A stretch of 63,666 nucleotides of DNA, filler included, from Licmophora abbreviata (taxonomy: Eukaryota), in the NCBI GenBank assembly GCA_900291995.1. It is 22 parts of 22 records of this genome, joined end to end, with 100 filler letters (N's around TTAATTAATTAA, not from the genome) between each part and the next. Parts side by side here need not be neighbours in the genome. Positions count along the whole stretch, not along the records: positions 25,625 to 29,431 come from OLMU01005023.1; positions 29,532 to 31,936 come from OLMU01005024.1; positions 32,037 to 34,980 come from OLMU01005025.1; positions 35,081 to 39,080 come from OLMU01005026.1; 18 more parts are not named here. One strand, written 5' to 3'. A program made the translations under genes and the position numbers. Below the pieces are notes generated by a model. That model did not search any database. It had not been told where the DNA came from and worked only from the letters and a program-made list of their open reading frames with translations. Positions 12,666 through 39,532 of the stretch are shown here, piece by piece. Every line of letters begins with the position of its first letter. Positions within the stretch are counted from its first letter, which is position 1.

Positions 12666-13357
12666 ATGCTGCTATTCGTGGGGCTGGGAAATCCCGGTGC
12701 GAAATATGCCGGAAACCGGCACAATATCGGCTTCATGGCCATCGACCGCATCGCGGAAGACCATGGGTTCGGGCCGTGGAAGGGAAAATTCCAGGGCGAG
12801 ATCGCCGAGGGCCAGTTGGGCGGGCAGAAGGTGATGCTGCTCAAGCCCGGCACCTTCATGAATCTCAGCGGGCAGTCGGTGGGCGAGGCGATGCGCTTTT
12901 ACAAGCTGGAGCCGGGCGATGTGACCGTGTTCCATGACGAGCTCGATCTGGCGCCGGGCAAGGTCCGGGTCAAGACGGGTGGCGGCCATGCGGGGCATAA
13001 CGGGTTGCGCTCGATCCATCAGCATGTCGGAGAGGCCTATCAGCGCGTGCGGCTTGGTATCGGGCATCCGGGCCGCAAGGAGCTTGTGGCACAGTATGTT
13101 CTGCAGGATTTCGCCAAGGCGGATGCCGATTGGCTGGACGATCTGATGCGCGGCATGTCCGATGGCGCCGCAGAGCTGGCGGCGGGCCGCAAGGACAGGT
13201 TCCTGAATGCCATCGCGCAGCGCATGGCCCCTGCCGGGGCGCCGCCTGCGCCGAAATCCGATGCGGCGGGCGCAGCGCCCAAGGCGCGGCCGGCTGTCAA
13301 GCCGGAAGAGCCGGCCGCGGACAACCGCAGCCCGCTGCAACGTCTGGTCGACAGGTT
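12666..13357 (+). CDS. pth: Peptidyl-tRNA hydrolase (3' end at gap)
   Basis: VGLGNPG, RHNIGF, FMNLSG, HDELDL, GHAGHNG. Confidence 0.96.
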
Positions 13358-13459
13358 NNNNNNNNNNNNNNNNNNNNNNNNNNNNNNNNNNNNNNNNNNN
13401 NTTAATTAATTAANNNNNNNNNNNNNNNNNNNNNNNNNNNNNNNNNNNNNNNNNNNNCG

Positions 13460-14598
13460 ATGCGCGCGGTGCTGATGGCGCTTTTGGCGATGGTGGTCAT
13501 CGGTCTGTGGAAGCGCGACGAGATCCTGAGATTATGGGCGGTCAACACGCTCTTTGACGAGGGCCGGATCGTCGAGAATTTCTCGCATATGGACCGGGCG
13601 TTCCTGACGGTGCCGCTGGGGCGCGGCGAGGGGCCGGTCTCGGGCCTGCCCGAGGGGCCGCCGCTTGCGCTGCCGCAGGGCACGGAGGCATGGATCGAGG
13701 CGCGGGGCGTCACCTCGCTGATGGTGCTGCATGAGGGCCGGGTGGTGCATGAAAGCTATCACCTGGGCACCGGGCCGGAAGATCGGCGGATCGGCTGGTC
13801 GCTGTCGAAAAGCTATCTCTCTGCGCTTTTCGGTCTTCTGGTGGAGGATGGCACGATCGCGTCGCTTGACGTGCCGGTGACGCACTATGACCCGCGCCTG
13901 ATCGGGGGGCCTATGACGGGGTGACGATCCGGCAGGTCTTGCAGATGACCAGTGGTGTGGAGTTCGACGAGGATTATCTGGACTATCATTCGGATATCAA
14001 CCGGATGGGCCGGGTGCTGGCGCTTGGCGGCACGATGGACGGGTTCGCGGCGGGGCTGATGGCGCGGGCGGCGCAGCCCGGAGCGCAGTGGGAGTATGTC
14101 TCGATCGACACGCATGTTCTGGGCATGGTGGTGCGTGGTGCGACGGGCCGGGACATTCCGGACTTGCTGACCGAGAGGATCCTGGCGCCTCTGGGGCTTG
14201 AGGACGCGCCCTATTATCTGAGCGATGGCGAGGGCGTGGCTTTTGTGCTTGGCGGTCTGAACATGCGCACGAGGGATCATGCCCGGTTCGGGCTGATGTA
14301 TGCGCAGATGGGTGCCTATGAGGGGCGGCAGGTGGTGCCGGCCGATTGGGTGCGTCTGTCGACGCGCGCCAGCGCGCCGACACAGCCGGGAAAGATCGGC
14401 TATGGCTATCAGTGGTGGATCCCGGTGGGCGCGCCGGATGGGGTTTTCATGGCGCGCGGCATTTATGGGCAGTATATCTATATCGATCAGACCCAGGATG
14501 CGGTGATCGTGGTGACCGGCGCGGATCGGGGCTTTCGCCAAGAGGGCGTGCACGAGGCCAATGTGGAAATGATGCGCCGGATCGCCGAGGCGCTGTGA
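13460..14598 (+). CDS. Serine hydrolase (beta-lactamase/6-aminohexanoate hydrolase family), split by a 1-nt frameshift in the G run near 13904-13909
   Basis: SxxK motif WSLSKS in ORF1; LQMTSG, YVS, YGYQWW, RGIYGQ in ORF2; adding one G restores GG-AYDGVTIR. Confidence 0.85.
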
Positions 14599-14671
14599 CG
14601 GGTTGAAGAGACAGCACTGGCGCTATTTACTGTGGGCACAGCCACGGATCAGCAGACAAGGACGCAAGGGC

Positions 14672-25624: not shown

Positions 25625-25912
25625 GTGGAACTGGCGCCCGCGTTTCGCGGCATGGCCGATCATGTGATCGTCAAGCCGGTGGAAGACGGATTCGAAACCG
25701 GCGCGCTGGATGCGCTGCTGGATATGCTGCGCGTCGGTCGGCTGCGACTTGTGGGGCGCGAGGGCTGCGCGGGGCTGGCGCGCACCGCGCAGGGCGCGCT
25801 CAATCGAGGTTATGAGGTGGAGTTGGTGCGCGACGGGATCGCCGCCACGGACAGTGCCGCCTTCGATGCCGTGCTCGAGGCGCTGACCAGCCAGGGCGCG
25901 CGGGTCGTCTGA
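25625..25912 (+). CDS. Isochorismatase-like/cysteine hydrolase, C-terminal fragment
   Basis: K...DGFETG.LD.LL, VG...C...RTA.GAL.RGY.V.LV.D pattern. Confidence 0.55.
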   Translation: MELAPAFRGMADHVIVKPVEDGFETGALDALLDMLRVGRLRLVGREGCAGLARTAQGALNRGYEVELVRDGIAATDSAAFDAVLEALTSQGARVV

Positions 25913-25942
25913 ACGACGCCGCATGCGCCCGGCCGGGCCGGA

Positions 25943-27292
25943 TCAGCCATCGCGACGGATATCGGCGCCAAGCGAGGCCATGAGCGGTTCGAAAATCGGG
26001 AAGGAGGTGGCGATCGGGCCGCCGTCATCCACCGTGACAGGCTGGTTCGCGGCCAGCCCCATCACCAGAAAGGACATGGCGATACGGTGGTCCAGATGGC
26101 TGGCACAGGTCGCGCCCCCCGGCACATCGCCATGTCCCCGGCCATGCACGATCCACCAGTCGGGACCGTCCTCGACCTTGATGCCGTTGGCGCGCAGACC
26201 GGTGGCCATGGCCTCGATCCGGTCGGATTCCTTGACGCGCAATTCCTTGACGCCGCGCATGACCGTGGCACCGTGGGCGAAGGCCGCGACGACCGACAGC
26301 ACGGGGTATTCGTCGATCATCGATGCGGCACGCTCGGGCGGAACCTCGATCCCCTTGAGGTCCGGAGAAAAGCGGGCGCGCAGATCGGCCACCGGCTCGC
26401 CGCCCTCCTCGCGCAGGTTTTCATAGCTCAGATCGGCGCCCATCTCCTGCAGGGTGGTGAACAGGCCCGCACGGGTCGGGTTCAGCCCGATATTGGGCAC
26501 CAGCACATCCGAGCCTTCGGTGATCAGCGCGGCACAGACAGGAAAGGCCGCCGAGCTGGGATCGCGGGGCACGGTGATGGTTTGAGGCGACAGCTCGGGC
26601 TGGCCTTCGAGGGTGATGATGCGGCCCTCTGCGGTGTCTTCGGTGGTGATCTGCGCCCCGAACCCCGCCAGCATCCGTTCGGTATGGTCGCGGGTCGCCT
26701 CGTGCTCGATCACGACGGTCTGGCCGGGTGCGTTCAACCCTGCCAGCAGCACGGCCGATTTCACCTGCGCTGAAGGAACGGGCACGGTGTAGCGCACCGG
26801 CAAGGGATCGCGCGCGCCCACGATGGTCATGGGCAAGCGCCCCCCCGACCGGCCAACCGCCTGCGCGCCGAAAAGAGCCAGCGGATCGGTTACCCGCGCC
26901 ATGGGCCGCTTGTTCAGGCTGGCATCGCCCGTGAAGGTGGCGGTCACCGGCGAGGTCGCCATCGCCCCCATGATGAGCCGCACACCGGTGCCGGAATTGC
27001 CACAATCGATCACCTGATCGGGCTCGGCGAAGCCCCCGACACCGACGCCGTGAATGCGCCACGTGCCCTCGTCATCGCGCGCCACCTCGGCGCCGAAGGC
27101 GCGCATGGCGCGGGCCGTGTCCAGCACGTCCTGACCTTCAAGCAGGCCGGTGACCATGGTTTCGCCGACCGACAGCGCCCCGAGGATCAGCGCGCGATGC
27201 GAGATCGACTTGTCGCCGGGAATATCGGCCGTGCCGGCAAGCCCGGTCGAGCGGTACGAGGTCATGGGAATCGGAGCGCCGTGGCCGGACAT
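25943..27292 (-). CDS. aroA: EPSP synthase (class II)
   Basis: [47 protein letters not shown]. Confidence 0.97.
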
Positions 27293-27382
27293 GGGGATGC
27301 CTTTCGTCAATGGATCGCCCGCCTGATAGCGCAAGCATCCGGCCGCGTCCATTGCCGTTGCGCTGCCACGGGCGCAGAGGCC

Positions 27383-27420
27383 GGACGCCTCCGGCGGGAG
27401 TATTTTGGGAACGATGAAAG
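27383..27420 (-). repeat. Half-unit of the composite intergenic repeat (copy 2)
   Basis: Reverse complement CTTTCATCGTTCCCAAAATACTCCCGCCGGAGGCGTCC is near-identical to 52934-52971. Confidence 0.85.
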
Positions 27421-27457
27421 GCGGGCCGCGCGAAAGACCGGGCGGCCCGGCACCGGC

Positions 27458-27808
27458 TCAGGGAAGAGCGGCGGTGATGATCAGCTCGACCTTGTAGTCG
27501 GGCGTGGCCAGTTTCGCCTCGCCACAAGCGCGGGTCGGGGCGTGGCCCTCGGGCACCCAGGCGTCCCAGACGGCGTTCATCTCGGCGAAATCGGCCATGT
27601 CGGCCAGCCAGATCGTGCAGCTGAGCATGCGGGTTGCGTCGGTGCCGGCCTCGGCCAGAAGGGCCTCGACCTTTTCGATGCAGCTTTGGGTCTGTGCGGT
27701 GACGCTTTCGCCGGGGGCGCCGACCTGACCGGCGAGATAGGCGATGCCGTTATGGATGACCATCTGGCTCATGCGCGGGCCGGTATGATGGCGGGTGATG
27801 TCGCTCAT
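27458..27808 (-). CDS. RidA/YjgF family protein (YoaB-like)
   Basis: RMSQ.V, YLAGQV, FAEMNAVWDAW, P.RAC.EA.LA, VE. Confidence 0.9.
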   Translation of the reverse strand: MSDITRHHTGPRMSQMVIHNGIAYLAGQVGAPGESVTAQTQSCIEKVEALLAEAGTDATRMLSCTIWLADMADFAEMNAVWDAWVPEGHAPTRACGEAKLATPDYKVELIITAALP

Positions 27809-27819
27809 GGGGTGTCCTT

Positions 27820-28923
27820 TCAGGAGCTGTGAAACCGGGCGGGCGAAAGCGCCGCGACCGTGGCATCCGATAGACCGGGTTCGGCCCCGGTGACAAGCGC
27901 CGCCGTGAGCCGCGCGAGGGCCGGGGCTGTCTGAACACCGTAGCCGCCCTGCCCTGCCAGCCAGAAAAATCCGTCAGCATCAGGCGCGAAGCCTGCGACG
28001 GGTGTCCTGTCCGCGGCAAAGCTGCGCAGGCCTGCCCAGCTGTGATCGACACGGGTGACGGGGATCGTCACGGCCTGTTCATAGCGGTGCAGACCTTCGG
28101 CCAGCACCATGTCATCGGGCCAGGCATCATGGGGCGCGACCGGGTCCTCATCGGCGGGCGAGACCATCAGCTTGCCCGCATCGGGCTTGGCATACCAGGT
28201 TTCGGAGATCGAGCCGAAAAGCGGCCAGTGCGCGATATCATGCCCTGTGGGCGCGGGCAAAAGCGCCGCGGAGCGGCGCATCGGCGTGATGCCTACCGGC
28301 GCCACGCCCGCCAAACGCGCCACCGGATCGGCCCAGGCTCCGGCGGCGTTCACCAGCACGGGCGCGGTGAATGGCCTGTCGCCCGCGGTGACCTGCCAGG
28401 CGGCATGCCCACGCCGGATGCCGGTGACGGGGGCGCTGGTCACCACCTGCCCGCCCCGTGCTTTGAGCAGCCGGGCATAGCCCTGCAGCATGCGATCCAC
28501 GTCGATGTCCTGAGCATCACGTTCCAGAGCGGCCCGGACGATGCGCTCGGGGCGCAGGATGGGGACCAGATCGACCGCGTCACCGGCCTCCAGCAGGTCG
28601 ATCCCGGAGGCGCCATCGCAATAGGCCTGCAGCGCGCCGAGCTCGTCCTCGCCTGCCAGCAGCAACTCGCCGCGCGGCGACAGGAGCGAGCGGTCACTGA
28701 TGCCCTCTGGTGCCTCGAATACCGGAGCGGCGGCGGCATTGAGCGCACGCAGGGTGGCGTTGCCGTAATTGCGGATGAAAATCGCGGCCGAGCGCCCGGT
28801 GGAATGATACCCGAGCTGCGCTTCGGTCTCGATCACGGTGACGCGGGCATGGGCGGCCAGTTCAGCGGCGGCGCTGATGCCGGCGATCCCGCCTCCGATG
28901 ACGATGATGTCGGGATGTGTCAT
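27820..28923 (-). CDS. FAD-dependent oxidoreductase (D-amino acid dehydrogenase, DauA-like)
   Basis: GGGIAG, GYHSTGRSAA, VNAAGAWAD, WAGLRSF..DR.P, GQGGYG.QTAPA. Confidence 0.88.
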   Translation of the reverse strand: MTHPDIIVIGGGIAGISAAAELAAHARVTVIETEAQLGYHSTGRSAAIFIRNYGNATLRALNAAAAPVFEAPEGISDRSLLSPRGELLLAGEDELGALQAYCDGASGIDLLEAGDAVDLVPILRPERIVRAALERDAQDIDVDRMLQGYARLLKARGGQVVTSAPVTGIRRGHAAWQVTAGDRPFTAPVLVNAAGAWADPVARLAGVAPVGITPMRRSAALLPAPTGHDIAHWPLFGSISETWYAKPDAGKLMVSPADEDPVAPHDAWPDDMVLAEGLHRYEQAVTIPVTRVDHSWAGLRSFAADRTPVAGFAPDADGFFWLAGQGGYGVQTAPALARLTAALVTGAEPGLSDATVAALSPARFHSS

Positions 28924-30067
28924 GCGCCCTCGAAGCCGGTCAGCACGGCGGTCAGGTTATGGCCGAGCTCGTCGCAGAGATAGCCGCCTTCCTGCACGAA
29001 CAGCGTGGGCAGCCCCAGCCCTGCGATCGCGGCCCCGATCCGGGAAAATCCGGGTGTCGTGACGGCGAAGCCCTTGAAGGGATCGCCCTCATAGGCGTCA
29101 AGACCGAGGGCCACCACCACCACATCCGCCCCAAAGGCGGATATGCGCGCGAGCGCCGTATCGAGAGCGCGCAGAAAACCCTCGTCATCGGTGCCGCGCG
29201 GCAAGGGCAGGTTGAGGTTGTAGCCAAGGCCCCGGCCGGTGCCGCGCTCTTCGGCATGGCCCCAGAAGAACGGGTAGAAACGGGCCGGGTCGGCATGGAG
29301 CGAGACGGTCAGCACGTCGTCGCGATCATAGAAGATGCCTTGCGTGCCATTGCCGTGATGCACATCCACATCGAGGATCGCCGGGCGAAGCCCCCGGGCG
29401 CGCAGCCGTTCGGCGGCAATGCCGGAATTGTNNNNNNNNNNNNNNNNNNNNNNNNNNNNNNNNNNNNNNNNNNNNTTAATTAATTAANNNNNNNNNNNNN
29501 NNNNNNNNNNNNNNNNNNNNNNNNNNNNNNNCGTTCGGCGGCAATGCCGGAATTGTTCAGGAAACAGAAGCCCCCCGCCAGATCGCCGAAGGCATGATGC
29601 CCCGGCGGACGCGACAGCGCATATGAGGCGCGCGCGCCCGACACCAGAAGATCGGCGCCGGTGATCGCCACCTGTGCGGACCAGTAGGCCGCCTCCCAGG
29701 TACCCTCACCGATCGGGCAGGCGGTGTCGGCCTGATGATAGCCCGCCTGCCCCACCGCCGAGCGAGGGTAGCTGTCGGTGCGGTTGGCGGGGTGAATATT
29801 GGGGATCACCTCGTCTCCGGCGCCATCGATGCGCTGCCAGCGGGTGTAGATCGTTTGAAGGAAGGACAGGTATTCGGGCGAATGCAAAGCGGCGAGCGGG
29901 CCCATTCCGGCATCGTCGGGCGTCTGCATCGCGCAACCGGCGGCACGCGCGCCCTCGATCAGCTTGGCGATGCGCGCGGGTTGTTCGGGGCTTGGCAGAA
30001 CCTTGCCGTTGGCCATGAAATGCCGAGGGTCATGCCGCCATTGCCGGTCGTCGAAAATCGCTTTCAT
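28920..30067 (-). CDS. Histone deacetylase family / acetylpolyamine amidohydrolase-like protein (spans gap)
   Basis: RPPGHHA, GGFCFLNN, DVDVHHGNGTQ, VQEGGY. Confidence 0.92.
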
Positions 30068-30552
30068 CCTGCGTCCTTCATCATCTCGAGGCACCCTTCG
30101 CGATCCAGGGTCATCACGGTTGCACCGGTACGCGGGACGAGACCCAACCGGTCATAAAACGCACGCGACGCAACCGAATGATCGTAGACGGCCAGGGTCA
30201 ACCATTCAGCCCGCCAAGTCTGTGAGGCGCGGCGCACAACCGCGGCCAGCAACCTGCGGCCAAGGCCAGAGCCACGCACCGTTTCATTGACCCAAAGGTC
30301 CGACACATAGACCCCCGCAGCCCCCCGCGCCGTCGAATAGGTGGGGCTGAAAAGAGCCGCCCCGCAGAGTGTGTCACCCTGCATCGCCAGCAGACCATGC
30401 GCCGGCGCGACCTCGGACAGAAGCGCCGATGCCAAGCAGGCGCGGCTGGCCTTGTGGGTATCGCCCAGATCGGTGCTGAGCGCGCGCAGCGCGCCGTCCA
30501 GCAGCGTCAGGTCGTCGTCGGTCCGAACGGGGCGGAAGGTGATCGCGGTCAT
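30064..30552 (-). CDS. GNAT N-acetyltransferase (SSAT-like)
   Basis: YST..G, YVSDLWV, RGSGLGRRLL, AFYDRLG. Confidence 0.88.
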   Translation of the reverse strand: MTAITFRPVRTDDDLTLLDGALRALSTDLGDTHKASRACLASALLSEVAPAHGLLAMQGDTLCGAALFSPTYSTARGAAGVYVSDLWVNETVRGSGLGRRLLAAVVRRASQTWRAEWLTLAVYDHSVASRAFYDRLGLVPRTGATVMTLDREGCLEMMKDAG

Positions 30553-30556
30553 GATG

Positions 30557-31483
30557 TCAGATCGCGGTCCTGTCCGCGCCTTTGAGGCCGAGCATATCAC
30601 GCGCACGGGCGGGGCTGGCAACCGTGCGGCCCAGATCCTCGACGATGCGGCGGATCTTGGCGACCTGCGCGGCGTTGCTGGTGGCCAGCTCGCCCCGGGC
30701 AATGGTCAGGCTGTCCTCGAGCCCGACACGCACATGCCCGCCCATGGCGGCGGCCATGGTGATCATCGGCATCTGGTGGCGGCCTGCCGCAAGCACCGAG
30801 AACATGTAATTCGCACCAAAGAGCTTGTCGGCAATTCGGACCATATGGGTCAGGTTTTCAGGATCCGGCCCGACCCCTCCCAGCACGCCGAACACGAACT
30901 GGATGAAGAATGGCGGCTGGATCATGCCGCGATCTGCGAAATGGCGCAGCATGTAGAGATGCGAGAGATCGTAGCATTCGAACTCGAACCGCGCGCCGCG
31001 CTCGGTGCCCAATTCGGTCAGGATGCGGGCGATATCGCGAGGGGTATTCTTGAAGACCAGATCATCCGTGCCTTCCAGAAACGGTTTTTCCCAGTCCTGC
31101 TGCCAGTCGGTGAACCGCTCGGCCATCGGATAGAGTGCGAAATTCATCGACCCCATGTTGAGCGAGGCCATCTCGGGGGCGGCAAGGCGCGGGGCGGCCA
31201 GACGCTCATCGAGGCTCATGATTGCGCTGCCACCGGTCGAGAGATTGAGGATCGCGTCACAGCCCTGATGGATGCGCGGCAGAAAGGCCATGAAATGCTC
31301 GACCGAGGCCGAAGGCCGGCCGGTTTCGGGATCGCGCGCATGCAGATGCAGGATCGCGGCCCCTGCCTCGGCGGCACCGAGGGCCTGTGCGGTGATCTCG
31401 TCGCCGGTCACCGGAAGATGCGGTGACATCGACGGCGTGTGGATCGAGCCCGTGATGGCGCAGGTGATGATGATATCGGACAT
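30557..31483 (-). CDS. Beta-keto acid cleavage enzyme (BKACE/Kce, DUF849)
   Basis: IITCAITG, AGAAILHLHAR, EMASLNMGSMN, FECYD, GGHVRVGLED. Confidence 0.92.
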   Translation of the reverse strand: MSDIIITCAITGSIHTPSMSPHLPVTGDEITAQALGAAEAGAAILHLHARDPETGRPSASVEHFMAFLPRIHQGCDAILNLSTGGSAIMSLDERLAAPRLAAPEMASLNMGSMNFALYPMAERFTDWQQDWEKPFLEGTDDLVFKNTPRDIARILTELGTERGARFEFECYDLSHLYMLRHFADRGMIQPPFFIQFVFGVLGGVGPDPENLTHMVRIADKLFGANYMFSVLAAGRHQMPMITMAAAMGGHVRVGLEDSLTIARGELATSNAAQVAKIRRIVEDLGRTVASPARARDMLGLKGADRTAI

Positions 31484-31496
31484 GCGGGGCCTTGTC

Positions 31497-32982
31497 TTAT
31501 GCGATGCGATCCAGTTCGGGGTGGATCTCGTCGGTGAATTGAGCCAGCGACAGGTCGAGCATCTCGGTGATCTCGTCGAGATGGGTTTCGGTCACGATCA
31601 TCGGGGGGGCAACGATGATATGATCCCCCTCCAGCCCCATGCGGGTGCGCCGCGAATAGACGATCAGCCCGTTGTCATAGGCGATGTTCACAAAGCGGTC
31701 GAACGCCTTGATGTGCTTGGGCAGTGGCGCCTTGGTGCGACGGTCCGACATGAATTCGAACGCCGTCAGAAGGCCCATGCCGCGCACGTCGCCGATGATC
31801 GGATAGCGTTGCATCAGACCGGTCAAACGTTCCATCAGACGCGCGCCCATCACCGCCGAATTCCGGGTGAGATCATTGCGTTCGATCTCGTCGATCACGG
31901 CGACACCCGCCGCACAGGCCAAGGGATTCCCGGCATNNNNNNNNNNNNNNNNNNNNNNNNNNNNNNNNNNNNNNNNNNNNTTAATTAATTAANNNNNNNN
32001 NNNNNNNNNNNNNNNNNNNNNNNNNNNNNNNNNNNNCACCCGCCGCACAGGCCAAGGGATTCCCGGCATAGGTATAGCCATGCAGGAACCCGCCATCGTC
32101 CAGAACCGCCTCGACCAGACGTTCATGCGCCGCCATCGCGCCGAGCGGCACATAGCCTGCGGCAAAGCCCTTGGACATGACGATGATATCGGGGGTCAGG
32201 TTCCAATGCTCGGCGGCGAGGAACGCGCCGGTGCGGCCCGCGCCGGTCATGACCTCGTCGAGGATGAACAGCACGCCGTATTTGCGACAGATCTGCTGCA
32301 CGCGCTCCATGTAGCCACGCGGCGGCGGCAGCGCCCCGGTCGAGGCACCGCCCACCGGCTCGACCATGAAGGCCAGCACGCTTTCGGGGCCTTCCTCGAG
32401 GATCTTCGCCTCGAGCATGTCGGCATAGTGATGACCCGTCGCCTCGTCATCGGGGTCGAGCCCGTCAAGATAGGCGGTGGGCGCGGGGATCTTGGGCATC
32501 GCCTGCATCATCGGCGCGAAGGGTTCCGTCAGCGGATCGTAGCCGGTGATCGCCAACGCGCCGAGCGTGCAGCCATGATAGCTGGGCGCGCGGGTGATGA
32601 TCTTCCAGCGGCTGCCCTCGCCGGTGGCCAGCGCGTATTGCCGCGCCAGTTTCATCGCGCTTTCCACCGCTTCCGAGCCGCCCGAGACGAAAAAGATCCG
32701 GTTCAGGCCTTCTGGGCAGAGGGTGGCTGTCTTCGCGGCCAGTTTCTCGGAGGCCTCGGTTTCGAAATGCAGACGATAGCCGAAGGTCGATTTCTCCATC
32801 TGGCGGCGCATCGCTTCGAGCACGTTCTCGTTGGAATGTCCGATATTGCAGACCATCGCGCCGGAGGATCCGTCGAGATAGCGTTTGCCGTCCACATCCC
32901 ACATGTAGACGCCGCGCGCCTGATCCAGAACCGGACGGCGCTGGCGGCCCTGGTAGAACAGATGGCTGGGTCTTTGTGTCAT
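31497..32982 (-). CDS. Class III (omega/beta-amino acid) aminotransferase (spans gap)
   Basis: YLDGSSG, SGGSEA, SYHG.T, EPVGG, DEVMTG.GRTG, SKG, HGYTY.GNP, DVRGMGLL. Confidence 0.92.
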
Positions 32983-32986
32983 GGCA

Positions 32987-34057
32987 TTATCCGGGCAAGG
33001 CGGCGCAATCCTGCGGCCGCAGATGAAGATTGACCTTGGTGCCCACCGGGAAGGGGTGCCCATCGATCATGTTGATGGCTTGCAGCTGCGTGTCGCCGGC
33101 CTGCACGAAATAGCGGACCGACTGGCCCTGGTAATCCACGGTCTGCACGGTAGCGGGAACCGAAATCACGCCATCGGGCGCGGGCGATGTGGACAACACC
33201 AGCTTTTCGGCGCGCACCACCAGTTTCGCGGGGCCTTCGGTGGTGATCCTCGGGGCTTTGGCCGCCGGGATCGGCACGGTGCCGAAGGTCTTTTCATGCA
33301 AGGTCACGGCACCGCCCGACACCGCGCCGCGCGCCGCAAGGATATTCGATGCCCCAAGGAACTGCGCCACGAATTCGCTGGCGGGCGTGTTGTAGACCTC
33401 TTCAGGGGCGCCCACCTGTTCGACCCGGCCTTCGGACATCACGACGATCTGGTCGGACATCGCCAGCGCCTCGGACTGGTCATGGGTGACGAAGACGGTG
33501 GTCACGCCGATCCGTTCCTGAATGCGCTTCAATTCAACGCGCATGTCTTCGCGCAGATTGGCATCCAGCGCCGAAAGCGGCTCGTCCAGAAGCAGCACGT
33601 CGGGTTCTATGACAATCGCCCGGGCAAGTGCGATACGCTGTTGCTGCCCGCCCGAAAGCGCCTTGGGGTAGCGATCCCCGACATTTGGAAGCTGCACGAG
33701 ATCCAGCGCGTCTTGCACGCGGCGCGGTATGTCCGAGGACGGCACGTTGCGGTATTTCAGCCCGAACGCCACGTTTTCGGCCACAGTCTTGTGCGGGAAA
33801 AGCGCGTAGTTCTGGAACACGAGACCAAGGTTGCGTTTGTGAATGGGCACGTCGTTGACGCGTCTGCCACCGATCAGGATCTCGCCTTCGGTCGGATCCA
33901 GCAGACCCGCGATCATGCGCAGGTTGGTCGTCTTGCCGCAGCCCGACGGCCCCAGAAGCGTGACAAACGCCCCCTCGGGTATTTCAAGCGACGAGCGATG
34001 CACGGCAGTGAAGGTGCCGAACCGCTTGACGATGTTGTTCAGAGTGACCGAGCTCAT
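32987..34057 (-). CDS. ABC transporter ATP-binding subunit (PotA-like)
   Basis: GPSGCGKTT, LSGGQQQR, LLLDEPLS, TOBE-like C-terminus. Confidence 0.93.
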   Translation of the reverse strand: MSSVTLNNIVKRFGTFTAVHRSSLEIPEGAFVTLLGPSGCGKTTNLRMIAGLLDPTEGEILIGGRRVNDVPIHKRNLGLVFQNYALFPHKTVAENVAFGLKYRNVPSSDIPRRVQDALDLVQLPNVGDRYPKALSGGQQQRIALARAIVIEPDVLLLDEPLSALDANLREDMRVELKRIQERIGVTTVFVTHDQSEALAMSDQIVVMSEGRVEQVGAPEEVYNTPASEFVAQFLGASNILAARGAVSGGAVTLHEKTFGTVPIPAAKAPRITTEGPAKLVVRAEKLVLSTSPAPDGVISVPATVQTVDYQGQSVRYFVQAGDTQLQAINMIDGHPFPVGTKVNLHLRPQDCAALPG

Positions 34058-34136
34058 CCATGGTCTCCGATGGCGGGTAATTGGGGGCGACCGGCCCCGG
34101 CGCACAAGGCTGTGGGACCGGTCTTGATCGTCTGGC

Positions 34137-35267
34137 TCAATAGCCCTTTTGCACGCGGCCGAAGGTCTTGGACCATTCCTGCTCGTTGCCGTTCCAATAG
34201 GCCGGGTCGGCGAAGGTCAGGCCCGACAGTTTGCCCGTTGGATCGAAGGCGGGCAGGGTCGGGATCTTGGCGCCCAGATCCACCTTCTGCGGATCAAGGG
34301 CCGGCGGATAGTTCTGCCCCTCGGCCACCGCGATCGAGGTTTCCGGCGCGAGCATGAAGTTCAGCAGCTCTTCGCAAGCTTCCATCGGGCTGCCCTTGAT
34401 GACGAACAGGCATTCCTGCCAGCCCATGCCATTGGGCGGGTCGATATAGCCGATGTCGTGGCCCTGTTCCTGCAGGGCATAGATGCGGCCGGACCAGCCT
34501 TCGGTCACATAGATTTCCTCCTCGGCCAGAAGGCTCATCAGCTCGGCACCCGACCCCCAGTATTTCAGGCTCAGATCGCGATGCTGGCGCACGGCATCCC
34601 AGACGGCGTCCATATCCTCGATCGCATTCGGGTTCTGGCCGGTTTGAAGCGCGGCATACCAGATACGCGTGCGCCAATCGCTCCAACCGGCGATCTTGCC
34701 CTTGTAGGCCGCGTCGATCAACAGATCCGCACCCTTCTCCTTGGCCTCTTCGTCCGAGATATGCTTGCGGTTATAAGCAAGCCCAGTGGTGCCGTAGTCG
34801 TAAGGCACACAAGACAGCTTGCCATCCGAGACACCGCGGAACACGTCGACCAATTTGGGAATGACGTATTGCAGGTTGGGGATGTTGTCCTCGTTCAGCA
34901 CGGTGCTGAGGCCGAGATTATGGTAGCGGGCATAGTCGAACACGCCCGACAGATGCGCGATGTTGTACTCGCCTTCCTGGNNNNNNNNNNNNNNNNNNNN
35001 NNNNNNNNNNNNNNNNNNNNNNNNTTAATTAATTAANNNNNNNNNNNNNNNNNNNNNNNNNNNNNNNNNNNNNNNNNNNNCCCAGCCGTCAAAGCGAACC
35101 TGGCTCACGGTCTGTGCATGGGCGAATTTGGCGAAGGGCGTCTGCACACCGTAAGCAAGGCCCGCGGCCCCGATCAGCCCCAGAAAGCCGCGCCGGTCGA
35201 TATCGCCGTTCATGTAACGCTCGCGCAGACGCTCGTAGCGGGTTGTGTTGTCCATTTTCCTGGTCAT
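34137..35267 (-). CDS. ABC transporter periplasmic substrate-binding protein (PotD-like), Tat signal (spans gap)
   Basis: IDRRGFLG twin-arginine motif; PYDYGTTGLAYN, WSGRI, P..G. Confidence 0.85.
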
Positions 35268-35311
35268 AGGTCACTCCTTGTTGACATGGGTTCAGTTTGC
35301 ATCGGCGGTTC

Positions 35312-36115
35312 TTAAGTGCCGCTCTTGGTCGAAAGTTTCCGGGCAATCGCCAGCCCCAGCAGAGGCAGCCCGACCGTCATCAGGATCATCACCGTGCCAA
35401 GCGCATTGATTTCGGGACTGATCGAATTGCGCAGCATGGCAAAAATCTGGGTCGGGACGGTTTCCACACCACCGGGCTTCCAGAACAGCGTGCCGGTGAT
35501 GTCGTCAAAACTGATGGTGAAGGCAAAAAGCGCCCCCGCCAGAACCGCCGGCAGCATCAGCGGCAGGGTGATCTGAAAGAAGGTCTGGCGCGGACTGGCC
35601 CCAAGGCTCATCGCGGCCTCTTCGACATCGCGCTTGATGCTGACCAGACGGGCCTGCACCACAAGGATGACGAAGGGCAGGGTAAAGATCACATGGCCCA
35701 GCAAAAGCAGGGTGAAGCTTTTGTTGATCTGCAGGAAGTTCAGGAACAGCAGCAGCGCCACCGCAAGAACCACCTCTGGCACCAGAATTGGCGCGATCAG
35801 CAGCGTGGAAATCAGGTTCGACCCCGGCACCCGGTAGCGCACCAGCGCAAGGCTGGCCAGAACACCCAAGGTGGTCGAGATCGCCGCCGTCAGCAGCCCC
35901 AGCACGATCGAGGTGCGAAACGCCCGCAGGATCGCGTCGTTATGCGCCAGCTCCACGAACCAACGGAAGGAAAACCCGGTCATCGGAAAACTTCCGAACT
36001 GGCTGGCGTTGAAGGACAAGAGCACAACGACCGCCACCGGCAGGAACATGAACATGTAGACCAGCAGGGTCCATGCGCGCACCAATGCCCAGCCCAGTGA
36101 TCCCGACTCGCGCAT
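35312..36115 (-). CDS. ABC transporter permease (PotC-like)
   Basis: EEAAMSLGA, FTISFDD, PEINAL. Confidence 0.92.
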   Translation of the reverse strand: MRESGSLGWALVRAWTLLVYMFMFLPVAVVVLLSFNASQFGSFPMTGFSFRWFVELAHNDAILRAFRTSIVLGLLTAAISTTLGVLASLALVRYRVPGSNLISTLLIAPILVPEVVLAVALLLFLNFLQINKSFTLLLLGHVIFTLPFVILVVQARLVSIKRDVEEAAMSLGASPRQTFFQITLPLMLPAVLAGALFAFTISFDDITGTLFWKPGGVETVPTQIFAMLRNSISPEINALGTVMILMTVGLPLLGLAIARKLSTKSGT

Positions 36116-36981
36116 CAGCCCAGCCCCTTCATCAGCTGCGCCATGCCAAGATAGCGGTTGTAGATCAGAACCAGAACCCCCAGCACCGCCAGCAGCATCA
36201 GGCTGAGAGCCGATCCGAGCGGCCAGTTGAGCTGTGTGATGATCGCCTCGAATACAAGATTGGCGAACATCGCATCGGTCGGCCCGCCCAGAACCAGCGG
36301 CGTGATATAGGTGCCTGCCCCCAGAACGAAACACAGCAGCCCGCCCGCCGCCAGCCCCGGCAGCGACAGCGGCAATGTCACCTGCAGGAACGCCTGCCAG
36401 CGTGTCGCGCCAAGCGAATTGGCGGCATCTTCGAGATTGGTGTCGATCCCGTCCAGACTGACAAAGACATTCAGCACCATGAAGGGCAGCAGGAAATGCA
36501 CCAGACCCAGGATCACGGTGGTTTCGTTATAAAGCATCTGGATCGGCTCGGCGATGATGCCAAGCGCCAGAAGCGCGCTGTTGAATGCCCCAGACACGCC
36601 AAGGATGTTGATCCAGCTCATCGTGCGGATGATGTAGCTGATCCAGAAGGGCAGCATCAGCAGCAGCAGCAGGATCGCCTTGTTCCCCTTGGACCGGGCA
36701 ATGAAATAGGCCGCGGGATAGCCCATGACCGCGCAGACGAACGTCGTGATCGCGGCGATCTTGAGCGTGTTGAGCAGAATGTCGCGGTAAAACGCGTCCG
36801 TCAGCGCCTCTTGCCAGTTATCCAGAAAGAAGCCCACCTGATCGGCGCCCGTCGCGGTGCGCAACCAGAACGAATAGACGACGATGAACAGCAAGGGCAC
36901 GAACAGCAGCAACGCCACTGCCGTGAGCGCTGGAGATAGCAATATCCAAGGCTGTCGGGCCTCTCGGGCTTCGACCGACAT
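36115..36981 (-). CDS. ABC transporter permease (PotB-like)
   Basis: LPFWISY, LEDAANSLGA, NWPLGSA. Confidence 0.92.
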   Translation of the reverse strand: MSVEAREARQPWILLSPALTAVALLLFVPLLFIVVYSFWLRTATGADQVGFFLDNWQEALTDAFYRDILLNTLKIAAITTFVCAVMGYPAAYFIARSKGNKAILLLLLMLPFWISYIIRTMSWINILGVSGAFNSALLALGIIAEPIQMLYNETTVILGLVHFLLPFMVLNVFVSLDGIDTNLEDAANSLGATRWQAFLQVTLPLSLPGLAAGGLLCFVLGAGTYITPLVLGGPTDAMFANLVFEAIITQLNWPLGSALSLMLLAVLGVLVLIYNRYLGMAQLMKGLG

Positions 36982-37092
36982 GAGACTCCCTCTTTGTTCC
37001 CTAGCCCGTTGTCACCGGGCTTGGCTTGACGATGCAAAGGGGGCATGCATTAATCAAATAAATAATCGGAATTTTGACTATTGACAGAAACT

Positions 37093-38052
37093 ATGGAAAC
37101 CCCTGACGGCGCTGTCCGTCTGATGCGAGAACTGGACTGGAACCTGCTGCGAACATTCGTCGTGCTGGGGCAGTCCCGCTCGATCACCGAAGCGGCACAC
37201 CGGCTGCGGCTCACGCAGCCTTCGGTCTCGACTGCGCTCAAACGGCTGGAGGACCGCGTCGGCCGTCGCCTGATCGACCGCAAACCGGGGCATTTTGAAC
37301 TGACGAAAGCGGGGCAGGTTCTTTATCGCGAGGCGGTAGACATCCAGGGATCGATCCTGCGCCTATCCACCCAGATGCGCGAAATGACTGACGAGGTGAC
37401 AGGGCATGTGCGCATCGCGCTGGCCAGCCACGTGATCTGCCCGCTTTTCGACGCCGTCCTGTCGGAATTTCACGCCGAGCACCCCAAGGCCACGCTGTCG
37501 ATCGACGTGCTGTCCTCGTCTGAGGCCGTCGAAAGCGTCTCGGGGCGGTTTTCATCCTTTGCCGTATGTCTTGTGAACCGGCGGAACCCGACCCTTGAAT
37601 ACATGCGCATCTACCGGGAATTCTTTGGCCTGTTCTGTGGGCCGCCGCATCCTTTGTTCGGGCGCGAGAACCTCACACGCGAGGATCTGGCCGGGCATTC
37701 CGCCGTCAGTTTCGACACAGACCGCCTGCAGGACGCGCTGAAGCCGGTGGCCGTGATGCGGGCCGAGGCCAATATGGAGGATCTGATCGTGGGCACATCC
37801 GGCCACCTTGAAGAGGTGCGGCGGATGGTCATCGCCGGACTGGGGATCGGCCCCCTGCCGGTTCATGTCACCAAGCGCGATGTGCAGGACGGTGTCATGT
37901 GGCAATTGCCCCCCTACGACACGCCGCCCGCGATAGATGTGCATGTGGTCTGGAACCCCAAGGCGAGCCTCAATCGCGCCGAGCAGTCCTTTCTGGACCG
38001 GCTGCTCAAGCGGATCGAAGCGACCCCCATGGAAGACCGAACTTATCGGTAA
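37093..38052 (+). CDS. LysR-family transcriptional regulator, divergent from the ABC operon
   Basis: LDWNLLRTF, SITEAA..L.LTQPSVS..LKRLE helix-turn-helix. Confidence 0.93.
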   Translation: METPDGAVRLMRELDWNLLRTFVVLGQSRSITEAAHRLRLTQPSVSTALKRLEDRVGRRLIDRKPGHFELTKAGQVLYREAVDIQGSILRLSTQMREMTDEVTGHVRIALASHVICPLFDAVLSEFHAEHPKATLSIDVLSSSEAVESVSGRFSSFAVCLVNRRNPTLEYMRIYREFFGLFCGPPHPLFGRENLTREDLAGHSAVSFDTDRLQDALKPVAVMRAEANMEDLIVGTSGHLEEVRRMVIAGLGIGPLPVHVTKRDVQDGVMWQLPPYDTPPAIDVHVVWNPKASLNRAEQSFLDRLLKRIEATPMEDRTYR

Positions 38053-38099
38053 TGGGCCGGGGCCAGCCCCCTGCCCCAGCCCCGGCCAAGCTGCCGCGA

Positions 38100-38885
38100 T
38101 CAGGTCGCGCGGGCCTTTCGGCGCCCGAAGGCCACCATTCCGCCAATTGCCCCGAGAAGCAAAGGCAGCGTCGCCGGCAGCGGGATCGGTGCGGTCGTGA
38201 TCCGAGCGTAGATATCCGCGGAGACAGGCTGCGCGCCAGTCCATGACTCGAAGACGATAAGATCGTTGGTATAGGTCACCGATCCAGCCCCAGCCGTGCC
38301 CAATCCCAGAAGATCGAACCTGTAGCGTTGGCCATCCATCTCGAAGAAGCGCACAACCGGGGGTGAGGCGACAGCGGTGATATCGGCATCCGCGGGCGCA
38401 GACTGGCCCTCATTGGTGGTTGTCGTCACTTCGAACTGATAGTCAAAATCCAGAATGGACGATCCGAGGAAGATTTCAAGCCCCAGGGTCGCGCCTTTGA
38501 AGTCGTGGCTGATCGCATAGCTGGTGCCGTTGCGATAGGTGAACGTGCCTATCGAGAACGCATCGTTCAGGCTCACGTTCCAGCCCGGACCGCCGTCCGA
38601 GCCGACGCCGTCGAACCGCCAATAGCTGCTGTCGGGACCAGACGTTGCAAGGGTGTTTGCGACATAGGTGTCGATCCATCCGGCTTCGTCCGTATTATGG
38701 CCGTTTTGCCATTCGACGCCCCAAGTGACATCGGCGGTGCCCCCTTTATCTTGGTTGGACACCTCGAAACCCTTGGTGGCGTCGATTGGTCCCCAAGCCC
38801 CGACCGCCGAGCCTGAAAGGCTTGCCGCATGGACCGCTCCTGCCGCAGAGAGCACCAGCGCTGTGGAAAGACATAATACCTTCAT
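38100..38885 (-). CDS. Secreted VPLPA-CTERM (PEP-CTERM-like) protein; passenger resembles choice-of-anchor K
   Basis: Signal peptide; C-terminal PIPLPATLPLLLGAIGGMVAFGRRK; FSIGTFTYRNGT motif. Confidence 0.85.
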   Translation of the reverse strand: MKVLCLSTALVLSAAGAVHAASLSGSAVGAWGPIDATKGFEVSNQDKGGTADVTWGVEWQNGHNTDEAGWIDTYVANTLATSGPDSSYWRFDGVGSDGGPGWNVSLNDAFSIGTFTYRNGTSYAISHDFKGATLGLEIFLGSSILDFDYQFEVTTTTNEGQSAPADADITAVASPPVVRFFEMDGQRYRFDLLGLGTAGAGSVTYTNDLIVFESWTGAQPVSADIYARITTAPIPLPATLPLLLGAIGGMVAFGRRKARAT

Positions 38886-38992
38886 AACAAAACTCCTTTT
38901 CAATAACTTCTGTGGCTCGGTCAGTGCTGGCGCTTGCGCGATTTTGTTAAGCGCAGCGGCACGGCACCGGGCTTGGCTGAGTGGGCGGACGT

Positions 38993-39532
38993 TCAGTTCG
39001 TCACTCCACCCGGAGGACCACCTGTTCCACCACCAGCGCCACCGCCGGCTCCACCGCCTGCTCCACCACCAGCGCCACCGNNNNNNNNNNNNNNNNNNNN
39101 NNNNNNNNNNNNNNNNNNNNNNNNTTAATTAATTAANNNNNNNNNNNNNNNNNNNNNNNNNNNNNNNNNNNNNNNNNNNNCACCAGCGCCGCCAACTCCG
39201 CCGGGGCCTCCGCCGCCATCGGCACCGACACCCGGCCCGTTGCCGACGCCCGATGCAGCGGCAGTCGAGAAGGTCTCGACCTCGGTCAGCACAACTGCCA
39301 GACCGGGGCATGCCAATTGGGTTTCGGCCAGGATGGATGCGAAACTGGCGCTGCGCTGAAGCTGGGCGACAAAGCCACGGGTCACGCGATCACAGTCGCA
39401 CAAATCGTCGACCGATGATGTCGTCATGGCCGTCCAGGCGGTGCATCTTGTATCAGCGATTGCAGGGGCGGCCAAAGTTGCCAGAGAGCAAAATGCTCCG
39501 ATCGTGGTCAAAGCCACAAATTTGCGTTTCAA
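38993..39532 (-). CDS. Secreted Cys-containing protein with long Gly-rich tail (spans gap)
   Basis: Signal peptide, C..CDC..C, then GGGA repeats on both sides of the gap ending GPPGGVTN*; TTG start with GGGAG RBS. Confidence 0.7.

Follow-up and report, generated by a model that had tools for sequence, protein, structure and literature searches.

Introduction

The closest described system to the one treated here is the aerobic breakdown of L-beta-lysine in Pseudomonas sp. B4. In this route the amino acid is N6-acetylated and then taken over by N6-acetyl-beta-lysine transaminase (EC 2.6.1.65); the later steps are the cleavage of 3-keto-6-acetamidohexanoate and a 4-acetamidobutyryl-coenzyme A (CoA) deacetylase (EC 3.5.1.51). 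We know of no sequences for the B4 enzymes, and three of the activities are to our knowledge still orphan. The gene cluster analyzed here lies at 27458-38052 of a 63,666-nucleotide (nt) stretch of DNA from the Licmophora abbreviata assembly GCA_900291995.1 (the window). It contains eleven genes, ten on the minus strand and a divergent LysR-type regulator, all assigned by Pfam (Table 1). Four of them, coding for a GNAT acetyltransferase, a class III aminotransferase, a BKACE and a deacetylase of the HDAC (histone deacetylase) family, match the four reaction types of the B4 route by family. Around the BKACE these genes form a core which recurs in other genomes, and we propose that the operon may serve the uptake and breakdown of a cationic beta-amino acid. 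The uptake system and the regulator fit a catabolic role, and the core is translationally packed. At variance with the B4 scheme, a flavin adenine dinucleotide (FAD)-dependent dehydrogenase and a Rid-family protein are without counterpart in it and the hosts are mostly Rhodobacterales and Hyphomicrobiales; the B4 enzymes can be compared with those of the cluster by reaction type, not by sequence.

The other well-described relative is Kce of lysine fermentation. With Kce and the BKACE family (PF05853) the enzyme of the cluster has the fold, the family, the zinc motif and the catalytic residues in common, and it is predicted to carry out the same reaction, in which a beta-keto acid and acetyl-CoA give acetoacetate and an acyl-CoA. 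With the Kce equivalog, however, it scores only 238.5 bits (cut-off 382). Unlike in lysine fermentation, the cluster is without kamA, kamDE, kdd and kal, and the keto acid would come from a transaminase and not from a dehydrogenase.

A conserved core around the BKACE

Relatives of the BKACE were scanned in one genome per species, which gave 592 stretches. The counts presented here use the best 80 loci (L with a number below), in which the BKACE is 59-84% identical and the flanks reach up to 10 kb on each side. They were searched by tblastn with the eleven proteins of G001, the nearest genome compared, which is 99% complete and has a BKACE with 98% amino-acid identity to that of the window. A partner was counted when it lay at most 9 kb from the BKACE, covered at least 30% of the query and exceeded an identity floor (50% for the aminotransferase, 30% for the GNAT, 55% for the HDAC, 45% for the FAD enzyme, 55% for the Rid, 60% for the transporter parts and 40% for the LysR); a locus was evaluable when it was long enough for the gene. 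All partner counts come from tblastn; the gene caller based on GC at third codon positions (GC3) errs on the opposite strand.

When the BKACE is at least 65% identical no other partner accompanies this BKACE clade as constantly as the HDAC, which is present in 50/58 loci, against 3/19 loci with a BKACE below 65%. The corresponding numbers are 41/56 and 2/19 for the aminotransferase, 42/59 and 3/20 for the GNAT, 29/46 and 0/18 for the LysR, 22/49 and 0/18 for the Pot-type solute-binding protein (SBP), 16/49 and 1/18 for the FAD enzyme, and 14/48 and 0/18 for the Rid. Aminotransferase, GNAT and HDAC all stand beside the BKACE in 32 of the 72 evaluable loci. All ten partners are found in 8/57 fully evaluable loci, and the taxa listed with the whole set are Roseovarius, Labrenzia, Breoghania, three Hoeflea and an uncultured alphaproteobacterium. 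Cultured strains with the cluster include Roseovarius mucosus DSM 17069 (L019), Hoeflea marina DSM 16791 (L056, with the ten genes complete), Pelagimonas varians DSM 23678 (L017, which has no GNAT) and Parasedimentitalea marina W43. What is conserved is the core aminotransferase-BKACE-(GNAT)-HDAC, a recurrent and tightly packed unit, while transporter, FAD enzyme and Rid are variable add-ons, and the ten-gene set is one of several variants around the core. A first-pass annotation of this DNA had described a ten-gene operon and had set co-occurrence of the genes in other genomes as a check beforehand. The co-occurrence is found and all the genes are present here, but they do not form a fixed set. 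Whatever the substrate, these four conserved genes lend themselves well, as a clearly delimited unit, to the search for a function.

The association can also be followed on a quick maximum-likelihood tree of 80 BKACEs, from which L040 was left out (stop in the BKACE match). The HDAC-linked enzymes fall in a clade of 50 rows, 44 of them linked, which has a support of 99 and contains G001, and in a clade of 8, all linked, with a support of 98; a third clade of 22 rows is mostly unlinked to HDAC (19). The HDAC label changes 7 times on the tree, against a mean of 20.6 after shuffling, and 0/500 shuffles were as low. The hosts of the cluster belong mostly to Rhodobacterales and Hyphomicrobiales. 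Core variants also occur on large non-mobilizable plasmids, namely pW43C of Parasedimentitalea marina (L087) and one of Phyllobacterium zundukense (L088), and 158 plasmid records carry a BKACE relative at E<=1e-80. The RefSeq names on two plasmid copies are generic: 'aspartate aminotransferase family protein', '3-keto-5-aminohexanoate cleavage protein', 'GNAT family N-acetyltransferase' and 'histone deacetylase family protein'.

The enzymes of the core

The BKACE scores 494.1 bits with the NCBIfam equivalog NF053538 (cut-off 430), which carries the name '3,5-dioxohexanoate:acetyl-CoA acetone transferase'. Its closest structures are the uncharacterised DUF849 proteins 3e02 (412 bits) and 3e49 (407), and then BKACE15 (8rio, 364 bits). 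In the alignment with 8rio the HLH zinc motif (HLHAR), E171 (FEFECYD), R254 and the glutamate of GLED (GGHVRVGLED) are all kept, and we take the zinc ligands to be His-x-His and Glu. Judged from this alignment the catalytic residues appear intact; E171 and R254 are the catalytic residues in BKACE15 numbering according to the accessible part of PMC11961710.

BKACE15 of P. denitrificans (PDB 8RIO/8RIP/9HNF) thus has in common with the present enzyme an NCBIfam family matched above cut-off and the two catalytic residues. The accessible text of PMC11961710 states that its physiological role is not known and that its gene context suggests aromatic degradation, whereas the neighbours here are amine-handling genes, the aminotransferase, the GNAT and the HDAC, and not genes for aromatic degradation. 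The two enzymes also differ at positions 196 and 228, where BKACE15 and 3e49 carry T/W and the window BKACE F/F. Among the 52 HDAC-linked BKACEs F is found in 98% at position 196 and in 98% at position 228, whereas the HDAC-free clade has T in 17/22 at the former and W in 22/22 at the latter. The NCBIfam name was not adopted, since it derives from what a relative with other gene surroundings does in vitro. G001 carries at least three more BKACE-like genes, 30-38% identical (C1, 136405-137277 and 144535-144927; C6, 191901-192716), and the organism therefore uses the BKACE family in several pathways.

For the other core enzymes the unbroken G001 genes were used wherever a full-length protein was required. 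The aminotransferase stays below every NCBIfam cut-off, the best model being PRK07483 (438.7 bits, cut-off 485). Its closest structure is 3i4j (318 bits), and its solved relatives are omega-transaminases, among them putrescine and polyamine:pyruvate transaminases at 248-264 bits. The GNAT bears a weak likeness to its nearest structures, which are 2fe7, the thialysine acetyltransferase 12jc (43 bits), the ornithine N5-acetyltransferase NATA1 and diamine acetyltransferase 2; its sole NCBIfam match at E<=1e-5 is HaaN with 26 bits, and none is left at 1e-20. The HDAC matches the acetylpolyamine amidohydrolases over its full length (3men 332 bits, 9gkz 320, 6phr 285, 3q9b 280), and HH, DxH, D and GGY, presumably the functional motifs, are visible in the sequence. 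It differs from the acetylpolyamine amidohydrolases 3MEN and 3Q9B in having no NCBIfam match and in standing with BKACE genes and not with polyamine genes. Taken with that of the FAD enzyme described below, the homologies of GNAT and HDAC would fit a lysine-like side chain.

The DauA-like dehydrogenase and the Rid protein

The FAD enzyme is a clear homologue of Pseudomonas aeruginosa DauA (PDB 3nyc/6p9d; 307 bits, E 2e-90). The alignment keeps Y53, E87, R222, E246, Y249 and R305 of DauA, whereas H48 and T50, the latter presumably with a role of its own in DauA, are replaced by Ile. Six of the seven published active-site residues (H48, Y53, E87, R222, E246, Y249 and R305) are thereby kept; in the accessible part of the source E87 and E246 hold the guanidinium and R222/R305 the alpha-carboxylate (PMC11193025). 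The Rid protein is nearest to PSPTO_0102 (114 bits) and PA5083 (89), against 40 bits for E. coli YjgF, and an Arg is visible in its C-terminal 'PTRAC' stretch (from the translation, unaligned to RidA). According to the part of PMC5619798 available, PSPTO_0102 and PA5083 are classed as Rid2, and Rid2 and Rid3 deaminate the iminoarginine released by DauA while RidA and Rid1 do not. The linkage of a DauA homologue to a Rid2 gene supports that in-vitro result.

The two genes are neighbours on the minus strand (27458-28923), 11 nt apart, and they are found together in 12 loci from other genera as well. Unlike in P. aeruginosa they are adjacent in a larger operon, and a DauB-like gene is absent from the eleven genes of the cluster, to which the search for DauB was limited. 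The Pot-type SBP is present as well in 14 of the 15 evaluable loci that carry the FAD enzyme. The pair is an accessory module present in a minority of relatives. A role of the flavoenzyme as a substitute for the aminotransferase was considered and dropped, as L049, whose operon is without aminotransferase, has a 65%-identical orthologue on another contig.

Transporters and other genes next to the core

The transporter has the same set of components and families as the PotABCD importer, and PotA, PotB and PotC are the nearest named models. All components stay, however, below the curated cut-offs: 349.6 bits against 482 for the PotA equivalog, 203.7 against 348 for PotB and 206.5 against 326 for PotC. 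The ATPase scores 354.3 bits with the potA subfamily model (cut-off 355.6) and 368.8 with PhnT2 (cut-off 457.7), and the orthologue of the PotC-like permease in G001 has 267 amino acids (aa). The SBP matches PotD/F at about 45-51 bits, and its best solved relatives are weak: a putrescine-binding protein (7xjm, 51.5 bits), PotD, PotF and GABA-sensor scaffolds (GABA, 4-aminobutyrate). It has no NCBIfam match at E<=1e-20, and a search of the ESM Atlas returned only generic 'solute-binding protein' clusters. It further differs from its Pot counterparts in having a putative twin-arginine (Tat) signal, DRRGFLG, which was read by eye on a 62-aa piece without a Pfam match and without a match to the Pfam TAT models.

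In orthologous operons amino-acid or TRAP transporters are used instead, and altogether five transporter types adjoin orthologous cores, the PotD/F-like one in 22/49 loci with a BKACE of at least 65%. One family of SBP_bac_3 polar-amino-acid ABC systems is found in 7 loci and on one plasmid; the nearest NCBIfam models, all matched below cut-off, are cystine- and Lys/Arg/Orn-binding proteins. LivJ-type systems stand beside the core in L037 and L054, TRAP systems of the DctM family in five loci (L012, L020, L025, L045 and L058), and an NMT1-type SBP in L062. This mixture of polyamine-like, amino-acid-type and TRAP transporters fits a substrate with a cationic amine and a carboxylate, and argues against plain polyamines. 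A substrate with a cation and a carboxylate is also indicated because the DauA homologue keeps E87/E246 and R222/R305.

Downstream of the HDAC other tails are found in some loci. A DgcA-like racemase of the enolase superfamily (187-195 bits, cut-off 400) follows in L009, L022, L037 and L054, paired with a DgcN-like acetyltransferase (222-236 bits, cut-off 480); both are so named by NCBIfam models only. DgcA, a racemase, and DgcN, an acetyltransferase, are the pair of the D-glutamate pathway, and the substrate of the pair seen here is probably not D-glutamate. The two genes (L009 10963-13018; L022 12424-14485; L037 12409-14467; L054 12430-14500) are joined to the HDAC gene by overlapping stops and starts, at about half the NCBIfam cut-offs. 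An M20 amidohydrolase and an alanine-racemase homologue follow the HDAC in L017 and on plasmid pW43C of Parasedimentitalea marina, and an M19 dipeptidase lies near the core in four loci.

Still other genes near the core may code for amidases. A DMFA2_C-like (dimethylformamidase-like) protein of about 550 aa was confirmed by Pfam in five loci (L058, L074, L075, L080 and L084), where it may be an amidase feeding the core; it has no NCBIfam match. The gene lies directly upstream of the aminotransferase or the BKACE (L075 6934-8580; L084 6907-8592; L058 8332-9972; L074 8230-9969), and its hosts are Ensifer, Mesorhizobium, Arenimonas and Ferirhizobium. A sixth member of this protein family, from L043, was rejected since Pfam matched PepSY_TM instead. 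L021 has a creatininase-like protein near the core and L061 a CocE/NonD hydrolase.

A model for the catabolism of a beta-lysine-like compound

The model which we favor is that the cluster is a LysR-controlled operon for uptake and catabolism of an imported cationic beta-amino acid. Each enzymatic step in it is read from family membership. The PotBC/SBP/ATPase system would import the compound, and the SSAT-like GNAT would acetylate its distal amine and so keep the later keto acid from cyclising. The class III aminotransferase would then convert the 3-amino group into a 3-keto group. The BKACE would move the acyl part onto CoA with acetyl-CoA as partner, giving acetoacetate and an N-acetyl-omega-aminoacyl-CoA, which in the case of beta-lysine would be 4-acetamidobutyryl-CoA. 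The acetylpolyamine-amidohydrolase-like HDAC would finally strip off the acetyl group and leave GABA or its CoA ester or lactam, and the acetoacetate would be activated by a 3-oxoacid CoA-transferase encoded outside the operon. The DauA-like dehydrogenase and the Rid2 might oxidatively deaminate a D-basic amino acid, either co-imported D-Lys or D-Arg or the beta-amino acid itself in its D-like (3R) form.

A beta-keto acid is called for because the most constant gene of the operon codes for a BKACE whose catalytic residues are intact, and the aminotransferase is its probable source because, the accessory DauA-like enzyme aside, it is the only enzyme of the operon able to make a keto group from an amine. 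The presence of both a distal-amine GNAT and a deacetylase for N-acetyl-alkylamines is sensible if the second amine is masked while the 3-keto acid exists. Lysine 2,3-aminomutase of the KamA family was found in 0/6 cluster-bearing genomes (G001, 99% complete, and five others; completeness is known for G001 only), so a beta-amino acid substrate would be imported rather than formed from lysine. Two CoA_trans subunit genes are present in G001, which can therefore activate the acetoacetate by-product; it gave no match above cut-off to the acetoacetyl-CoA synthetase model TIGR01217.

We give this general scheme an even chance of being right. Beta-lysine (3,6-diaminohexanoate) itself is the leading candidate for the substrate, as a tentative choice, and in relatives without the GNAT it is possibly N-epsilon-acetyl-beta-lysine. 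A wider version of the model is more speculative, and it is rather doubtful that all of it holds. The core would here be the missing gene set of the aerobic beta-lysine route, and its BKACE would have a new specificity, toward an N-acyl-amino keto acid, with F196/F228 as markers. The DauA-like/Rid2 pair would be a flavin-dependent bypass which deaminates the D-like enantiomer, and beta-lysine and N-acetyl-beta-lysine set free by other microbes would be a resource for marine and saline Rhodobacterales and Rhizobiales.

A number of observations weigh against beta-lysine and in part against the scheme as such. Among the HDAC-bearing loci 9/53 are without GNAT, BKACE and HDAC abutting directly, and the orthologous aminotransferase is missing in 11/50, although in one of the loci without it (L029) a 39%-identical class III enzyme stands at that position. 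The GNAT has no match to the NCBIfam model of the beta-lysine acetyltransferase AblB (presumably the one named GNAT_ablB) at E<=1e-5. NCBIfam assigns the BKACE, above cut-off, to a family named for 3,5-dioxohexanoate, and the related BKACE15 takes neutral C5-C6 keto acids, 6-acetamido-3-oxohexanoate being outside the substrates listed in the accessible part of PMC11961710. The operon contains no gene for a thioesterase or a CoA-transferase that would act on the acyl-CoA product. In the classical beta-lysine scheme there is no step for the FAD/Rid pair, and the kept residues of DauA which bind an alpha-amino acid would point to D-alpha-amino acids. The DgcA/DgcN-like, the M20 plus racemase and the M19 tails likewise act on alpha-amino acids and are left unexplained by beta-lysine. 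A natural supply of beta-lysine to such bacteria has to be assumed, and the link to beta-lysine is for every protein one that we infer.

The tails may be understood in more than one way. The FAD/Rid, DgcA/DgcN-like and racemase genes may be separate modules for D-Lys or D-Arg which share uptake and control with the core, or the D-amino-acid enzymes may recycle the amino-acid product of the transaminase. They may also be the sign of another substrate, for instance one in which a beta-amino acid and a D-amino acid are conjugated.

The first-pass annotation had offered the cluster as a possible gene set for the beta-lysine pathway or an analogous route and had at the same time held that the substrate cannot be read from the sequence alone. 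With the latter we agree. Of the former, the four-gene core and its logic of protection, transamination, cleavage and deprotection stand, backed by conservation and homology, but the GNAT does not match AblB and NCBIfam assigns the BKACE to the family named for 3,5-dioxohexanoate. The inclusion of FAD dehydrogenase and Rid in the pathway is not borne out, as the Pseudomonas scheme has no step for them and they look like a DauA/Rid2-type pair for D-basic amino acids. The observation was thus confirmed, and the interpretation is partly supported, because the core logic has this backing while the substrate is still a matter of deduction, FAD enzyme and Rid lie outside the scheme and the operon is variable.

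Literature searches on the route, its intermediates, enzymes and EC numbers, and on DUF849/BKACE with acetylpolyamine, found no gene assignment to the aerobic beta-lysine route, with subscription journals thinly covered. The NetSyn preprint on BKACE neighbourhoods does not mention lysine, deacetylase or acetyltransferase in the accessible portion of its main text. If the assignment holds, three decades-old enzyme activities gain sequences and a large BKACE clade named after an in-vitro substrate gains a physiological role. The compounds of the N-acetyl-beta-lysine type include a methanogen osmolyte, and bacterial use of beta-lysine-type compounds, this osmolyte included, would become testable in cultured strains.

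Alternative models

An acetylpolyamine, polyamine or beta-alanine route would bring in spermidine, putrescine or acetylpolyamine by the Pot-like importer and let GNAT and HDAC interconvert the acetylated forms; the aminotransferase would take as substrate beta-alanine or an amine derived from a polyamine, and the BKACE would cleave malonate semialdehyde or another small keto acid. The transporter is indeed most like PotA/B/C, with the potA subfamily model just below its cut-off, and the solved relatives of the SBP are only PotD/PotF and GABA binders. The HDAC is nearest to acetylpolyamine amidohydrolases, the GNAT resembles SSAT2, and putrescine and polyamine:pyruvate transaminases are among the relatives of the aminotransferase. 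BKACE15 moreover turns malonate semialdehyde into formyl-CoA, a reaction which its authors call non-native in the accessible text (PMC11961710). We nevertheless hold this route to be unlikely. Polyamine routes need an aldehyde dehydrogenase after transamination, which the operon does not have; every Pot model stays below cut-off and the SBP reaches only about 50 bits with PotD/F. The ABC systems of amino-acid type and the TRAP systems used by orthologous cores are transporters of carboxylates, and BKACE has no known role in polyamine catabolism.

The DauA homologue invites a different model, in which the operon serves the use of D-Arg, D-Lys or D-Orn: DauA homologue and Rid2 make the 2-oxo acid, the class III enzyme either puts an amino group back to give the L-form or works as a racemase, N-acetylated compounds fall to GNAT and HDAC, and the BKACE is downstream or unrelated. 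This accounts for the 307 bits and the six active-site residues kept, for a Rid2 of the type acting on the DauA product (in the available part of PMC5619798), and for other core tails that would work on D-alpha-amino acids, namely the alanine-racemase homologue and the DgcA/DgcN-like pair (187-236 bits, below cut-offs). Some enzymes of the class III fold, including some among the matches of the aminotransferase, are racemases. The FAD enzyme and the Rid are, however, present in only 16/49 and 14/48 loci, and aminotransferase-BKACE-HDAC persists without them. There is no known chemistry from the 2-oxo acid of Lys, Arg or Orn to a beta-keto acid, the operon has no DauB-like partner, and the best-conserved gene, that of the BKACE, is left without a role; the probability of the model is accordingly low in our judgment. 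The same tails, DauA/Rid2, DgcA/DgcN-like and racemase, which all process D-alpha-amino acids, could alternatively dispose of a D-amino acid released from a compound in which it is bound to a beta-amino acid as an amide conjugate or lactam. A natural product resembling a peptide, or a piece of the cell wall, would be an example, and the HDAC-type enzyme would be the amidase. The additional amidases near the core in relatives (DMFA2_C-like, creatininase-like, M20, M19 and CocE/NonD) speak for such a conjugate, but the operon of the window has no amidase besides the HDAC, no candidate compound can be named, and the accessory genes vary by locus and may be separate modules, so that we find it quite improbable. 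The equivalog NF053538, at last, would make the BKACE a 3,5-dioxohexanoate:acetyl-CoA transferase whose substrate is a diketo or hydroxy-keto acid without nitrogen; such an acid could stem from the breakdown of aromatic or phloroglucinol-type compounds, and the adjoining amine enzymes would be unrelated. The score with this model is well above the cut-off, but the role of BKACE15 is given as not known and its context as aromatic degradation in the accessible text of PMC11961710, and the cluster has no such genes. The link of this BKACE clade to aminotransferase and HDAC holds in different families and on different replicons, and positions 196/228 are nearly fixed as F/F, unlike in the HDAC-free clade and BKACE15; we see very little chance for this model.

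Gene order in the window

The window consists of 22 contigs of 1.1-6.2 kb which have been artificially joined. It contains 44 runs of 44 N in 22 pairs with TTAATTAATTAA inside each pair, and the spacers have the layout N44-TTAATTAATTAA-N44 (positions 6175-6274, 8340-8439, on through 62397-62496). The cluster is spread over four contigs (25625-29431, 29532-31936, 32037-34980 and 35081-39080), and the genes for HDAC, aminotransferase and SBP are cut by spacers. For any gene or operon of the window which runs across a spacer the adjacency needs checking.

Long exact overlaps between contig ends are found at 2 of the 21 junctions of the window (25 and 33 nt), both within the cluster, and one further junction has 8 nt. 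The Pfam profile ranges of the split halves abut, 2-132 and 128-296 for the HDAC and 12-298 and 291-400 for the aminotransferase. All four contigs align to a 19.5-kb piece of a single G001 contig (250 kb) with order and orientation unchanged and with 94.5-96.2% identity, and this mapping reproduces the 25- and 33-nt overlaps as well as a 124-nt gap within the SBP gene. Because the contigs map uninterrupted and in the same order on one G001 contig, the adjacency of the cluster genes across the spacers is real. A contig from sequencing run X2 covers G001 12184-14620, a range that starts at the end of the BKACE gene, takes in GNAT and HDAC and stops inside the FAD gene; since X2 possibly comes from the same sample as the window, this contig gives no independent support for the gene order. 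In an RNA library only 0.05 of the sampled words were present, which gives no evidence of cluster expression, and the contigs of this library on the G001 locus are mostly 90-95% alike and may derive from relatives or from DNA.

Table 1. Genes, spacers and candidate regulatory site of the cluster, with positions in the window.
Feature	Position	Strand	Basis
Rid-family imine deaminase, Rid2-like (predicted)	27458..27808	-	Pfam Ribonuc_L-PSP 82 bits
FAD-dependent dehydrogenase, DauA homologue	27820..28923	-	Pfam DAO 181 bits
HDAC-family deacetylase, C-terminal part, acetylpolyamine-amidohydrolase-like	28920..29431	-	Pfam Hist_deacetyl 153 bits, profile 128-296
Artificial spacer	29432..29531	none	flanking contig ends share exactly 25 nt
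HDAC-family deacetylase, N-terminal part	29532..30067	-	Pfam Hist_deacetyl 75 bits, profile 2-132
GNAT N-acetyltransferase, SSAT/thialysine-acetyltransferase-like	30064..30552	-	Pfam Acetyltransf_1 45 bits; start MTAITF
BKACE	30557..31483	-	Pfam PF05853, 359.9 bits, profile 2-274 of 274 (full length)
Class III aminotransferase, C-terminal part	31497..31936	-	Pfam Aminotran_3 74 bits, profile 291-400
Artificial spacer	31937..32036	none	flanking contig ends share exactly 33 nt
Class III (omega-type) aminotransferase, N-terminal part	32037..32982	-	Pfam Aminotran_3 262.6 bits, profile 12-298
ABC ATPase with TOBE domain	32987..34057	-	Pfam ABC_tran + TOBE_2
SBP, C-terminal part, PotD/PotF-like	34137..34980	-	Pfam SBP_bac_8 75 bits, SBP_bac_6 51 bits
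Artificial spacer	34981..35080	none	ends share 0 nt; 124 nt of SBP gene missing vs G001
SBP, N-terminal part	35081..35267	-	translation; DRRGFLG twin-arginine-like signal; continues into G001 384-aa protein
ABC permease, PotC-like	35312..36115	-	Pfam BPD_transp_1; start at MRESGS, as in G001
ABC permease, PotB-like	36115..36981	-	Pfam BPD_transp_1
AT-rich box, candidate regulator-binding site	37047..37072 (core 37055-37064, TATTTATTTG on operon strand)	none	alignment of lysR-potB spacers
LysR-type regulator	37081..38052	+	Pfam HTH_1 68 bits, LysR_substrate 98 bits

The first-pass annotation had given the ten minus-strand genes in this order, with the divergent LysR and with overlapping or near-adjacent junctions, and Pfam agrees with every family named. 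The junctions, whose lengths depend on the start codons chosen, are of the kind it described. From ATPase to Rid they are gaps of 4-13 nt or overlaps of 4 nt: gaps of 4 nt between ATPase and aminotransferase, 13 nt between aminotransferase and BKACE, 4 nt between BKACE and GNAT and 11 nt between FAD enzyme and Rid, and 4-nt overlaps of GNAT with HDAC and of HDAC with FAD enzyme. PotB and PotC overlap by 1 nt. The SBP is the only gene set apart, by 44 nt from PotC and by 79 nt from the ATPase.

Regulation and flanking genes

No NCBIfam equivalog reaches its cut-off with the LysR. In a consensus scan promoter-like and terminator-like sites showed no excess over shuffled sequence, and the terminator-like sites inside the operon are at chance (8 found, 7.0 expected). 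The spacer between lysR and potB is 99 nt in the window and contains an AT-rich box. In an alignment of 22 lysR-potB intergenic regions from different genera the columns of the box consensus TATCTATTTG are at least 80% conserved. A degenerate box pattern, composed after this alignment, occurs in 22/22 regions, 51-73 nt upstream of the potB start, and twice in the whole window; the box is a plausible candidate for the LysR site.

On the regulator side of the cluster the final 888 nt of the contig (38193-39080) are without counterpart in the mapped G001 stretch. A 267-aa protein is encoded on the minus strand at 38100-38903, with a signal-like segment at the N-terminus and a C-terminal PLPATLPLLLGAIGGMVAFGRRKA tail resembling a sorting signal of the PEP-CTERM type; it has no Pfam match at E<=1e-6. 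On the other side the EPSP synthase gene aroA, known by translation only, lies at 25943-27352 on the minus strand, about 105 nt downstream of the Rid gene, and the same arrangement of aroA after Rid is found in G001.

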